From assembly GCA_038245295.1 (NCBI GenBank), contig JBBRSP010000001.1, forward strand, positions 288,001-352,000: 64,000 nt of DNA, written 5' to 3'. Both the position numbers and the translations under genes were made by a program. This stretch comes from Candidatus Binatia bacterium. Lineage in GTDB: Bacteria > Desulfobacterota > Binatia > HRBIN30. The notes beneath the pieces are model-generated. The model worked only from the letters and a program-made list of their open reading frames with translations, was not told the origin of the DNA and searched no databases. This document shows, piece by piece, positions 4,993 through 41,260 of this stretch. How positions within the stretch are numbered: the stretch's first letter is position 1; every line of letters starts with the position of its first letter.

Positions 4993-8610
<3,618 letters not shown>

Positions 8611-16496: not shown

Positions 16497-18524
16497 TTAA
16501 GGGCACATGGTGTGCGTGAACATCGGAACGGGCACCGGCGCCAGGGCCCAATTCGGCCGGAAGATGTCGGGTAGGCTGCTTGGCCAACAAAAGAAGCCGG
16601 CGGTGTTTGCCGTGTACTCGGTCGGTGTCCAATTGAGGCCAATCTGAGGCGTTTGCAGCCCGTAGGTGTCGATCTGGGGCATGGGGCCCTGTGCGAAACC
16701 TACCGGGGAGATCTCTCCTACGACATCGGCAATCGCCGAGTCGGAACTGAAGGTGCCGTTTGTGCTGCCGCCCTCGCCGACCGACACGAGGGCCGTCATG
16801 TTGGTACCGCGGATACCCGAGACGTTGACGTAGCCGTTGTGCTGGCAGTGGGGTGAGAGGGTGACGACGACGTTGCCGTAGGCACCCTCGATGTCGGTTC
16901 CGGTGAGATTGTCGACGCGCGCGTAGGTACCGAAGCCGACACCTTGCTCGTCGGTCGGAGGCACAACCATGTTGTTGCGGATACATCCGCCGTCGCACTG
17001 GTCATGACCGCAGAGTGGCGCGGCGTGGTCCGTCTCCATGCGCAAAGCAACCCCGCCGTGACTGAACACATGGGAGACGGTGCATCCGAGGCACGACTGC
17101 ACCTGGATTGGTCCCCAGCCCGACGGCGACAGCACGTTGTAGACCCACTCCATTTTAAATCCTTGCGGCATCCTTGGGGCGGCGAACGTCGAGCCGGCGA
17201 TGGCTCGCGGCTTCACTACTGGGTTGCGGGCGTAGTAGATCGTCGGTCCGGTCGGATCGCCGGTGAGCGGATCGAGAACCCGCTCGGGGTTTTGGATCGA
17301 GAAGAAGCGCGACAGTTCGACGCTGTTCGACCAGCCGACGAGCGCGGCAAAGGAGTTCGACGGGATGTTGCGAAAGCGGGCGTCGAGATCGACGACGAAC
17401 ATGGTCTCAATCGGCCAACGCGGATTGTGTGGCAGCGAGTCGATGTTCGACATGCCGTTGGCTTCCGAGTTGCCGCGCTCGGCGGTCGAGTGCAACTTGT
17501 TCTCTCGGGTTGGACTGCCGGGCCCCCCACAGCCGTCGCCGGCAGTGATCGTGATGTTCGATACCTCAGTGGTCGCGCCGATTATGAAGAGTGGATTCTC
17601 GCCTTTGGCGCCGGTGCTCGGACTCAGCGGCGCAGTGAGGGTGGCTGCGGGGGAGACCTCGATGCGAACGTTCGACGGTACGACAACCGCCGCAAAGCGG
17701 TGAAGGCCGGGCCCGATGAAGACGCGACCCTGCGGCGCAATGTCGACGGCAGGATTCGCCGCCGCCGCTGCCAGTAGCGCGGTGAGTTCAGCGCTCTGAT
17801 CCGTGTCTGGATCTTGCACTGCCAGCAAAGCGTAGGGCGGGTTCGTGCACGTCGAGAGGCAATTCCGCGGGGGATCGCTGTTGCGGGTGGCGCGGAAGAT
17901 ATCGATCTGGTCGTTACGCAGCGTGATCGCTGGATCTCCGTAGGCGTGCGCCAGGGCATCGGCGCACCAAGCGGTCTCCCCGAGTTGGAATTGCAGAGCG
18001 ATCCGTACCTGCGTCGTCTCGTCGAGAGTGTAGGCCCAACCGGCGCCGCCGGCCTTGACGGTCAGGCGGTCCTTCTTGAGGACGACCTTGGCGATCGGAG
18101 CATCCGGGGCGACGTCGATGAACTCGAAGCCGCTCGGTCGGGCCGTCGTGCCGAGAGCCTTCCAGCCGGAGGGCGGCAAGACGACCTCGACGCGTTCGCC
18201 GCTGCCGGCCGTGTTGGCCACCACCACGGTACCACCGTTCAACGTTGGATCGTCGCCGCTGCCCCGCACCGGTGGAACGATGCGATTCTCCGAAGCGCTG
18301 CGACCGGTACGTGCACTGAAGCGCAGCGTCCTATGCTTGAGATCGATCGGTGACGTATGGTCGTCGTGCAGAGTCAGTCGACTGGTCTTGATGCGCACGG
18401 AGTTGATGACGCTACCGGCGTCGGCCCGGGTGGGGAGCGTCGCCGATCCGAGTCCCGACAGGAGGCAAACGATACCTACCATGGGCGCCCATGGACCCCG
18501 AACCTTCATTTGCTGAAAACGCAT
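16497..18524 (-). CDS. Secreted protein with C-terminal GH82 iota-carrageenase-like beta-helix domain
   Basis: Signal peptide; VPSNVRIEV, WGPIQ, GGVALRMETD, TLSPH...NGYVNV match the recalled GH82 core. Confidence 0.6.
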   Translation of the reverse strand: MRFQQMKVRGPWAPMVGIVCLLSGLGSATLPTRADAGSVINSVRIKTSRLTLHDDHTSPIDLKHRTLRFSARTGRSASENRIVPPVRGSGDDPTLNGGTVVVANTAGSGERVEVVLPPSGWKALGTTARPSGFEFIDVAPDAPIAKVVLKKDRLTVKAGGAGWAYTLDETTQVRIALQFQLGETAWCADALAHAYGDPAITLRNDQIDIFRATRNSDPPRNCLSTCTNPPYALLAVQDPDTDQSAELTALLAAAAANPAVDIAPQGRVFIGPGLHRFAAVVVPSNVRIEVSPAATLTAPLSPSTGAKGENPLFIIGATTEVSNITITAGDGCGGPGSPTRENKLHSTAERGNSEANGMSNIDSLPHNPRWPIETMFVVDLDARFRNIPSNSFAALVGWSNSVELSRFFSIQNPERVLDPLTGDPTGPTIYYARNPVVKPRAIAGSTFAAPRMPQGFKMEWVYNVLSPSGWGPIQVQSCLGCTVSHVFSHGGVALRMETDHAAPLCGHDQCDGGCIRNNMVVPPTDEQGVGFGTYARVDNLTGTDIEGAYGNVVVTLSPHCQHNGYVNVSGIRGTNMTALVSVGEGGSTNGTFSSDSAIADVVGEISPVGFAQGPMPQIDTYGLQTPQIGLNWTPTEYTANTAGFFCWPSSLPDIFRPNWALAPVPVPMFTHTMCP

Positions 18525-18708
18525 GCGAGTCCCCGATCCACTGCTCGGCTACCGGTGCTCGGCGCCGCGCGTAAAACCGCCATTTGGGAGCGGAGTCTGC
18601 GGCGACTGTATGACCTTTGTCCAGTGCGCACTTCGCGTTCACCCCTGTGTCGCCGGCTCTTCCTCACGTGCGCGCTTCGGTCCGCGTGAATAGTTTCCTT
18701 CCTCGGAG

Positions 18709-18978
18709 TCAGGAGGCCCGCCGGGTGCTCCGCTTGGACCACGTCTCGGCCCAACTGGTGAGCGGCGCCAGGGCCGCCAGCAGGCTCTCGCCGGTGGGCG
18801 TAAGCAGGTAGCCGCCCTCGTCGCGCAGCATGACGAGGTTGCGTTCGCGCAACTCTGCCAAGCGTTGATTGAGCACGCTGGGCGACATGTCGGCACATCG
18901 TGCGCGCAGGGCGGCGAAGGTGAACGGGCCGTCACGTAGCTCCCAGAGGATGCGCAAGGTCCACCGCCTTGGACTCAC
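18709..18978 (-). pseudogene. N-terminally truncated HxlR-family winged-helix regulator
   Basis: RRWTLRILWELRDGP...SPSVLNQRLAEL...GYLLTPTGESL; similarity begins abruptly at RRW, only 15 nt from the divergent gene's start, with no RBS. Confidence 0.65.
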
Positions 18979-18993
18979 AAAAGGAGAGATCTC

Positions 18994-19563
18994 ATGACCA
19001 CGCCCACGGACGTCGTTCCGCGTATCGTCCCATTGGCTCCGCGACATCCACCGGAAGTCGCTGCCGAGCTCGAGCGCTGGATGCCACCCAGCTCGTCGAT
19101 GGAACCTCTGACGCTGTCTCGTTTGTTGTGCCGCAACCTGCCGCTGGCGCAGGCGATGCTTCCCCTCGGCGCCTTCCAGTTGTCCAAGCGCTCAGGGCTG
19201 CCGCGTCGCGTGCGCGAGTTGGTGATCAACCGCACCTGCGCCCGCCTCGGTGCGGAGTATGAATGGGGCGTCCACGCCGTCGCGTTCGGCGCGGCGGTTG
19301 GACTGAGCGAAGCCGACCTCGTCGCGACGACAACCCCTGGGATGGCTCACTGGCAGGGTAGCGACGCCCTGGTGATCCGCATGGTCGACGAGCTGATCGT
19401 CTCACACACCATGGCAGCGGCGACCTGGGCCGAGTTGAGCGCCCTGTTCGACACAACCCAGTTACTCGAGCTGGTGGTGTTATGCGGCTGGTACCACCTG
19501 ATCAGTTTCGTCATCAACGCGACCGCCCTGCCGCCGGAGCCGTGGGCGAGTCGATTTCCCTGA
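18994..19563 (+). CDS. Carboxymuconolactone decarboxylase/AhpD-like protein
   Basis: RELVINRTCAR..AEYEWGVH, QLLELVVLCGWY; AAGGAG RBS. Confidence 0.85.
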   Translation: MTTPTDVVPRIVPLAPRHPPEVAAELERWMPPSSSMEPLTLSRLLCRNLPLAQAMLPLGAFQLSKRSGLPRRVRELVINRTCARLGAEYEWGVHAVAFGAAVGLSEADLVATTTPGMAHWQGSDALVIRMVDELIVSHTMAAATWAELSALFDTTQLLELVVLCGWYHLISFVINATALPPEPWASRFP

Positions 19564-38845: not shown

Positions 38846-41260
38846 ATGGCTTGCGGCCTGACGTGCCCGGTGGCTGGCGATGCCCGCGCGAGTAGCTGGA
38901 GCCTCGTCTCCTTGACGGCTCGAGAACGCTCTCGTATGGCTCCTTCGGTGTCGGAGAGAGCGCCTGAAGTCTATCCAGAACCTCCGACGACGCTGACGCC
39001 GCCGCATTCGCCCTTGGCGGACGAGAATCCACTCGAGGCAGCCTTGAGCATCGGCCTGGCGACGTTCATGTCCACGAGTGCGCTCATTCTGCTGAAGCTG
39101 CTCGTAACAAAGACGTTTTCTGTTCCCACGTTGAACTTCGGTGGTCGCGGTCCGCAGCTCCTTTCGCTTGCCCAGGGTGTGCTCGTCACACCAGGGGTTG
39201 TAGCCTTGATCACCGTGGGCGCAGTCCTCCTCGGGCGATTCTATGCACGATTGGTTGGAGAGGGGTCGCTGGGATCCATCCTGACCGCCTCACTCGCCGG
39301 CATCGCCGGCGCGATCGCCATGGTTCCGGTGCTCGGACGAGAGGCCGACAGCACGCGGATGCCGTTGGTTATCCTGATCCCGATCCTGCTGGGCATTGCC
39401 GCACTGGTTTGTCATCAGAGTCGACTGGTCACGCGCGGGGTCCTCTTCAGCGCCTGTTTGCCCGGGGCACTGTTCGCGTACAGTCTTGCGTCGCTGTTGG
39501 ACAGTGAAGGAATCACCGCCGCCTTTCCGCTGAACTCGGAGCTGGCGCGACAAGGAGTTGCTGCCCTGGGCGGGCTCCTCATCGGGCACCTTGTTGCCTT
39601 CCTTCTTCCGACGGTCATTGGGGTGCTCTTGCTGTCCGGCTGGGGGCAGCAGTGGGCATGGCGCAGCCTTCTTGCTTTTGGCCTCATGGGTGCGGCCGCG
39701 TGGATGGTATTGATCCTGGACAATATCCTCGAGCCGCTGCTCGCTTTCCCTGGCCTCTTCGATTTTCGTTTCGCCATCGAGCTGCTGGCGATCCTCATGG
39801 GCGCGGCGGGTGTCGGCCTGTTGTTGAGTCGCGGCCGGGCGCAAGCAGGGGCCGCTGGCGTTGCCATCGCACTGGCGCTAGCCGCCGTCCCACTTCCGAT
39901 CACCCCAAAGGCAGCAATGTATTCTTCGGGAATGGCCATCGACGTGTGGGTTCGGCGTTCCTACTCGGAAGTCTTCGACCGCGACGGGGATGGAGCATCG
40001 ACCTTGTTCGGGGAGGGGGATTGCGATGATCACAATGCCGCCATCCGTCCCGGCCGCCCCGACGTCCCGTTCAACGGCATCGATGAAAACTGTTTGGCGG
40101 GCGACCTGCAGCAGGCGGATGTACCCCCGAATCGGTGGCAGATCACCCATCCGGCATCAGCCAACCACAGCATTCTTCTGGTCACGGTCGATACGCTACG
40201 CTCCGACATCGTGTTCGGAGCAAATGGGACAATGCCGCGTTTGCGCAGCTTCGCCCAACGCCACGGTGGATTCGACAATGCTCACGCTCTCGGCGGCGCC
40301 ACCGCTTTTGGCCTTCTCAATCTCTTCTACACGGAAGAGATCTCACCCTACGCTCTGCCGCGTCATCGCAACCTTCCGAGTTATATGAAGGAGGCGGGCT
40401 ATCGAACACTGTGCATCTACCCGACCTACCGCGCCGCATCCGTGGATGTGCCTACGACGATCTTTCAGGAATGCGATCTGGCCGAGGTTGTTGCCGGCGA
40501 CGACAAGGCGCGCATCCCTTCCGGGCAGGAAGTGATCGAGCGGGCGCTCTTGCGCATGAATCAAATTGCTGGGAACAAGTTCGTCTGGATACAGCTCGAC
40601 GACCTTCACGACTACGTCGTGTACCGTCCCGGTAAAGGCTACAAAAGCTACTACTTGTTCGATGGCCTTTCGTCGCTGGGCTCGTATCAGACCCTACGAT
40701 CCTACTTGCTCGCCAAGTATCGCGAGCGCGCTGCCTATCTCGACCGAGTCTTGGATGAACAGATCCTGTCTCGCTTCGAGAACGACCCCGCATTCGCCGA
40801 CACTCTTCTGATCTTGACCGGTGATCACGGCGAGGAGTTCCTGGAGCACGGCGGCATCTTTCATGGCTCAACTCTTTACGAAGAGCTGACGCGTGTCCCG
40901 ATCGTCTTCTCGGATGGCCAGGCCGGAGAGATCTACCATCACCCAATGGCTCATCAGGACGCCGTCAAGAGCATGATGGCGTACGCCGGCTTCGAGCGTT
41001 TTCCCGAGCCGGCAACAACCTTGCGCACACCGCCCAGCGACGACCGTGTCCTCGTCGGATTGATGGTCAGCAACGGCCTCTTCTCTGTACGCCGCGGCAG
41101 GTACAAACTCATTCTGAACTTCTTCACCGGCGCTGAGATGTTGTTCGACCTCGTCGACGATCCAGGGGAGACACGCGACCGGAGCGGTGATCTTCCGCAG
41201 GTTGCGGCTGAGTTTAGGACGCTGGCCGACATCGAAGAGCGCCGGATCATCAAGCGCTAG
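38846..41260 (+). CDS. Membrane-anchored sulfatase-like/alkaline-phosphatase superfamily protein
   Basis: N-terminal TM helices; DRDGDG..GDCDD..NGIDENC motif; VTVDTLRSD, TGDHGEEF; start uncertain. Confidence 0.75.
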   Translation: MACGLTCPVAGDARASSWSLVSLTARERSRMAPSVSERAPEVYPEPPTTLTPPHSPLADENPLEAALSIGLATFMSTSALILLKLLVTKTFSVPTLNFGGRGPQLLSLAQGVLVTPGVVALITVGAVLLGRFYARLVGEGSLGSILTASLAGIAGAIAMVPVLGREADSTRMPLVILIPILLGIAALVCHQSRLVTRGVLFSACLPGALFAYSLASLLDSEGITAAFPLNSELARQGVAALGGLLIGHLVAFLLPTVIGVLLLSGWGQQWAWRSLLAFGLMGAAAWMVLILDNILEPLLAFPGLFDFRFAIELLAILMGAAGVGLLLSRGRAQAGAAGVAIALALAAVPLPITPKAAMYSSGMAIDVWVRRSYSEVFDRDGDGASTLFGEGDCDDHNAAIRPGRPDVPFNGIDENCLAGDLQQADVPPNRWQITHPASANHSILLVTVDTLRSDIVFGANGTMPRLRSFAQRHGGFDNAHALGGATAFGLLNLFYTEEISPYALPRHRNLPSYMKEAGYRTLCIYPTYRAASVDVPTTIFQECDLAEVVAGDDKARIPSGQEVIERALLRMNQIAGNKFVWIQLDDLHDYVVYRPGKGYKSYYLFDGLSSLGSYQTLRSYLLAKYRERAAYLDRVLDEQILSRFENDPAFADTLLILTGDHGEEFLEHGGIFHGSTLYEELTRVPIVFSDGQAGEIYHHPMAHQDAVKSMMAYAGFERFPEPATTLRTPPSDDRVLVGLMVSNGLFSVRRGRYKLILNFFTGAEMLFDLVDDPGETRDRSGDLPQVAAEFRTLADIEERRIIKR

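Follow-up and report, generated by a model that had tools for sequence, protein, structure and literature searches.

Does a bacterial gene that carries the catalytic residues of an iota-carrageenase necessarily encode an enzyme for carrageenan? The question is raised by an open reading frame (ORF) in a 64,000-nucleotide stretch of the genome of Candidatus Binatia bacterium (GenBank assembly GCA_038245295.1, contig JBBRSP010000001.1, positions 288,001 to 352,000; hereafter the window), which encodes the protein P0001 and is single-copy in the genome. The initial annotation described a secreted, divergent member of glycoside hydrolase family 82 (GH82), joined to an unrelated N-terminal domain and perhaps acting on another anionic polysaccharide. 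The characterised GH82 enzymes that we found in the literature all cut carrageenan, and GH82 matches serve as markers of red-algal degradation. Our sequence comparisons and structural model directly support the homology to GH82, the predicted fold, five kept active-site residues, two changed sulfate contacts, a missing lid and a modular N-terminal domain. On balance we moderately favour the explanation that P0001 is an exported, surface-tethered, inverting and randomly acting endo-glycanase, which would have kept one anion-binding Arg, lost two sulfate contacts and act on a probably microbial polymer less sulfated than iota-carrageenan.

P0001 is a homologue of the GH82 sequence family, as judged from profile searches, predicted fold and conservation. 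A profile of 11 relatives (A1) found the carrageenase CgiA of Alteromonas fortis (1h80) in the PDB at E 4.4e-16, and P0001 as a single sequence did so at just E 0.19. Conversely, a profile of five CgiA-like proteins scored P0001 at 40.5 bits, and hhalign of A3 against the CgiA-like P0125 gave 98.1%. The predicted model is a parallel beta-helix, right-handed, with CgiA as the closest fold, and the ETD motif aligns without gaps on E245 and D247 of CgiA; the proposal of a divergent GH82 protein with intact Q, E, D and H thus holds for profile, fold and conservation. Pfam and NCBIfam scans gave no match to P0001, and the CgiA-like controls likewise hit no GH82 model there; the clade of P0001 is invisible to both databases. 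All four motifs noticed initially were located, GGVALRMETD at 17028-17057 as first reported, and, of the genome's 42,933 six-frame ORFs, this one alone has their spaced set. Because the set is this rare and the profile of the relatives retrieves CgiA, the match is not due to chance. The third-position GC of the ORF is 0.775, within the range of its six neighbouring genes (0.748-0.799). One assembled contig from the likely source run, a sediment metagenome of one study with no salinity recorded, covers 16859-19478 with zero differences, and the same fusion of N-terminal module and GH82-like domain is found in P0002 and in locus L007, so misassembly does not explain the fusion.

When 1.84 billion representatives were searched with a profile, 455 proteins matched at E 0.001; the family counts given here draw on the best 150 of these. 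The tree includes the 136 of 159 proteins that cover 60% of the profile and, under midpoint rooting only, splits into a 69-member branch containing the five CgiA-like proteins and a 67-member branch (support 1.0). Among the CgiA-like proteins, P0125 matches CgiA at E 1e-125 and P0083 does so at E 1e-115. P0001 belongs to a 17-member clade inside the 67-member branch (support 0.996; 99 SH-aLRT in a quick IQ-TREE of 53 rows, where two small groups of this branch shift about the root), with a pairwise identity of about 35%. The five CgiA-like proteins keep the Tyr, the Arg and the lid of CgiA, and the lid is seen only there. Among the other 64 proteins of their branch, Tyr is kept in 57, Arg303 in 38 of the 61 scored, and Gly stands in the place of D247 in 51, whereas the P0001 clade has E-x-D in 17/17 and Tyr in 1/17. 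The lidless proteins adjoining the CgiA-like group (P0067-P0160 branch) carry E-x-G or E-x-H instead of E-x-D in 57/64, and since the Asp is replaced they have no accepted general base. Six members of the 67-member branch (P0032, P0034, P0044, P0049, P0053 and P0068) carry fused dockerin, Ig/TIG, CBM4/9-like or fn3 modules, as would fit glycanases tethered to the surface.

The active site was compared by alignment with CgiA (PDB 1h80, 1ktw, 3lmw), in which Glu245 is the acid and Asp247 the base of an inverting mechanism, helped by His281 and Gln222 (PMC13514251). By alignment to the 1h80 chains, with an offset of 27 derived in this analysis, E245, D247, H281 and Q222 correspond to E497, D499, H559 and Q474, and the five residues Q, R, E, D and H are kept in P0001 and throughout the clade (17/17). 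Sulfate recognition is altered. Y229, R254 and R314 of CgiA_Ce bind substrate sulfates, and their Ala mutants are almost inactive, R314A among them (PMC3669377); an offset of 11, deduced from Q233/H292, equates them with Y218, R243 and R303 of CgiA. Arg243, a contact of the A2S sulfate at subsite +1, is retained as R495 (17/17). The place of Tyr218, which contacts the G4S sulfate at subsite -1, is taken by W470 and in the clade by Q (11), W (4), Y (1) or A (1). Arg303, the second A2S contact, is replaced by S581 and is Arg in 0/17 clade members, its place there being set by counting 22 residues from the His. The lid domain A, which bears E310, occurs in 5/5 CgiA-like proteins and in 0/17 of the clade, and 33 residues separate the His from the next conserved Phe in P0001 as against 88-106 in the CgiA-like proteins. 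As two tested substrate-recognition features are lacking, we file P0001 as a GH82-like branch and not as an iota-carrageenase, the activity of EC 3.2.1.157, by which beta-1,4 bonds in iota-carrageenan are hydrolysed with inversion. The suggestion of another substrate is hence better supported than it was initially, through W470 and S581; that of an anionic one gains from the retained R495 and is weakened by the acidic core (21 K+R against 36 D+E, isoelectric point 4.9).

Other differences from CgiA are the extra N-terminal module, the acidity of the core, inserts that precede the catalytic coils and follow ETD, and the CxxC and PHC cysteines. The insert after ETD is real (about 34 residues against about 9 in CgiA), but the protein is not as Cys-rich as first described: it has 13 Cys (1.9%), 10 of them in the core, where CgiA-like proteins have 7-10, and the placement of the cysteines is the distinctive part, with C478, C481 and C560 each present in 17/17 clade members. 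A signal peptide is predicted, as before, from a basic start, hydrophobic residues 15-26 and A-D-A at 34-36. A hydrophobic stretch at the N-terminus occurs in 16 of the 17 clade members, and a lipobox pattern in four.

In the mechanism that we propose, the protein would be exported by the Sec pathway and then form disulfides. E497 would protonate the glycosidic oxygen while D499 activates a water held by Q474 and H559, giving single-step inversion as in CgiA. R495 may still bind one anionic group, either a sulfate or a uronate carboxylate, at subsite +1, and the absence of the lid would leave an open groove for random endo cutting in place of processive action. The loss of the subsite -1 Tyr and of the second Arg at subsite +1 points to a substrate that likely carries less sulfate than iota-carrageenan; most probably it would be a microbial capsule or exopolysaccharide of the sediment. 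It may be O-acylated, as secreted esterase-family genes adjoin the GH82-like gene in three of nine related loci (pectin acetylesterase family in L003; BD-FAE/alpha-beta hydrolase in L006 and L010). These loci comprise five named genomes and four metagenome loci, several of them kin, with 61 of 112 called ORFs scanned. We consider it about an even call that P0001 marks an unstudied GH82 subfamily, which lies in the 67-member branch of the 136-protein tree, away from the CgiA-like carrageenases, and applies the carrageenase machinery to a non-algal polymer such as a bacterial exopolysaccharide, so that GH82 would not be carrageenan-only, and that the N-terminal module is an undescribed beta-sandwich domain tagging exported proteins of the class at either end. 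A literature search found no publication on the 17-member clade or on the module. With its kept catalytic residues and changed sulfate contacts the clade offers a direct test of GH82 specificity determinants; it may also supply a new glycanase activity, and it warns against equating GH82 annotations with carrageenan use.

Several points weigh against this explanation. The equivalences with CgiA depend on alignment; W470 is still aromatic, and CgiA_Ce Y229F kept about 15% of its activity (kcat/Km 0.59 vs 3.86; PMC3669377). One CgiA-like protein (P0135) is as acidic as the P0001 core. Lidless iota-carrageenases about 20% identical to CgiA exist, and the lid is thus not required for activity (PMC9788395); divergence and lid loss therefore do not indicate a new substrate, the latter only an open groove. 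The Microbulbifer thermotolerans CgiA, the Pseudoalteromonas atlantica T6c enzyme, Paenibacillus CgiB and Cg82Mf are, by their published description, likewise without domain A and at this level of identity (PMC9788395), and Cg82Mf, which cuts at random as an endo-enzyme, acts on both iota- and kappa-carrageenan (PMC13514251). In the genome, 18 sulfatase matches exceed the cut-off and one GH127 is present, and the habitat, labelled 'sediment', could be marine. The esterases are generic alpha/beta-hydrolase matches, two of the three loci are related, and the window has none.

These same observations bear on the reading of P0001 as a genuine carrageenase (iota- or iota/kappa-) without a lid, or a hydrolase of sulfated galactans, that would release oligosaccharides from red-algal detritus. 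The fold and the five active-site residues match CgiA, and carrageenase genes may sit outside the carrageenan locus (PMC5698469). We nevertheless regard it as unlikely, as the equivalents of Tyr218 and Arg303 are altered across the clade, no carrageenan genes were seen close to the gene in the named relatives (actinomycetes and a myxobacterium), and neither GH16 nor a KDPG-type aldolase was found in the genome. PF01081, which we take to be the family of the 2-keto-3-deoxy-galactonate aldolase DauD, had 0 matches in this 96.6% complete genome, while the control matched in 9/14; the core carrageenan pathway would need this aldolase. That core comprises dauABCD, dagA and cgsB in Zobellia (PMC5698469). 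A search for GH129 matched no control. The GH127 gene is flanked by polysaccharide-synthesis and efflux genes and apparently does not lie in a catabolic cluster. It follows, with an S1/P1 nuclease before it and a radical SAM/SPASM gene after it, a Wzx/Wzy polysaccharide-synthesis cluster with an asparagine-synthase-like amidotransferase and three GT4 genes (L027, G000:C4:184600-198500). In the window, a sulfatase-domain match (E 6e-15, in an 827-aa frame) lies at 40172-40990 (+), about 22 kb from the GH82-like gene.

The neighbourhood also leaves room for a role in the remodelling or release of the host's own exopolysaccharide or capsule, for biofilm dispersal or chain-length control instead of foraging. 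The genome has the Wzx/Wzy cluster and four sulfotransferases over the cut-off, no uptake genes are seen near the gene, and in the myxobacterial relative (L003) it precedes a methyltransferase, a DUF2079 membrane protein and two F5/8 sugar-binding proteins. However, the gene stands alone, inserted among unrelated genes; 0/60 relatives carry it, so it does not belong to the fixed set of a conserved envelope pathway; and eight of the nine related loci show no biosynthesis genes among the scanned ORFs; we therefore find this role improbable. The 11 neighbours scanned (12.2-25.0 kb) encode an acyl-CoA dehydrogenase, HxlR regulator, CMD protein, HAD hydrolase, Uma2 nuclease, patatin, EthD, alcohol dehydrogenase, OmpA, TPR membrane protein and one protein without a match, and include no polysaccharide-utilisation gene, as first reported. 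No sulfatase, GH127 or SusC/D was seen among the 61 ORFs of the nine loci. L007 has GH31 and GH29 genes 5-10 kb from its GH82-like gene.

Four of the nine loci (L004, L008, L009 and L010) have a divergently transcribed pair directly upstream, an OmpR-type response regulator and a HAMP sensor kinase, which is conserved among them. This arrangement, and the presence of beta-helix adhesins such as PfbA among the weaker fold matches, would suit a non-catalytic glycan-binding beta-helix that acts as adhesin or sensor partner. We consider such a function very improbable, as Q, R, E, D and H are invariant in 17/17 clade members at only about 35% pairwise identity.

Returning to the favoured glycanase, its N-terminal module was called unrelated, which needs amending: it is one instance of a module that is widespread and shuffled in this bacterial class, confidently predicted as a domain and with no close solved structure. 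It is present in about half of the genomes of this uncultured class, in multiple copies, mostly at the C-terminus of exported proteins. These proteins are unrelated, and the module, which is all-beta and usually basic, often sits on Thr-rich linkers. In the 29 top loci it is always terminal, C-terminal in 27 and N-terminal in two, and it is N-terminal in P0001 too, so its position is not strictly C-terminal as in a C-terminal sorting signal. The C-terminal domain of the type IX secretion system (PF18962) is a sorting and anchoring domain, and the module resembles such domains and carbohydrate-binding modules in being all-beta, terminal and on unrelated exported proteins. Its likely role would be to fix the enzyme on the cell surface or on a glycan there, as a lipid anchor would in the lipoprotein-like relatives.

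A broken fusion of module and GH82-like domain occurs at L007:9347-10756: a TAG stop interrupts the module, and the sequence is cut short immediately ahead of the catalytic Gln. It lies directly downstream of a beta-propeller protein of 1140 aa whose end is formed by the same module. A large family of beta-propeller proteins of about 1100-1250 aa with CxxCH motifs (L013-L020, L028-L057), multicopy in the class, also ends in the module, often in a GSPSGAFL-like tail. G000:C38:32787-37034 (+) encodes a large exported protein whose N-terminus bears a weak and divergent copy of the module, followed by an apparent glycosidase domain.

Table 1. Features of the GH82-like gene, in window positions
Feature	Residues	Position	Strand	Remarks
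Whole gene (P0001)	675 aa	16497..18524	-	Signal peptide, terminal beta-module and GH82-like beta-helix
Predicted Sec signal peptide	1-36	18417..18524	-	Sequence, hydrophobicity scan
All-beta module, about 186 aa, probably uncatalogued	37-222	17859..18416	-	Conserved C187 and C222
GH82-like right-handed parallel beta-helix (predicted)	223-675	16500..17858	-	No lid domain A; profile, predicted fold, conservation
First motif	273-290	17655-17708	-	
Second motif	468-474	17103-17123	-	
G469-W470-G471-P-I-Q474	469-474	17103..17120	-	W470 at CgiA Tyr218 (sulfate-binding); Q474 at Q222
C478-L-G-C481	478-481	17082..17093	-	Clade-specific CxxC, 17/17; elsewhere never majority residue
Third motif	490-499	17028-17057	-	
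R495-M-E497-T-D499	495-499	17028..17042	-	CgiA R243, E245 (acid), D247 (base)
Cys-bearing insert after ETD	501-534	16923..17024	-	
Fourth motif	554-571	16812-16865	-	
H559, C560	559-560	16845..16850	-	CgiA H281, then clade-specific Cys
S581	581	16782..16784	-	At CgiA R303 (sulfate-binding); subsequent E310 and domain A absent

The distribution of the gene is rare and patchy, which suggests lateral spread. The five named genomes with clade members are two Acidimicrobiales, one Actinomycetes bacterium, one labelled Gordonia and one Polyangiaceae, and no match to the catalytic region was obtained in 400 genomes of the class, 400 of the class of G401 and 300 of the phylum of G402, with few candidates scored in each. 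L010 has two integrases and a TrwC relaxase, which suggests a mobile element. L004:754-1905 (-) and L010:11748-12899 (+) encode homologous 384-aa lipoproteins beside the GH82-like gene, without Pfam or PDB match, whose ENE and NEIG motifs presumably recall the acid/base and nucleophile of clan GH-A. Elsewhere in the window, 4993-8610 (-) encodes a SecA of 1205 aa, longer than the usual length of about 900 aa, in which a long helical insertion follows the region of the second motor domain.
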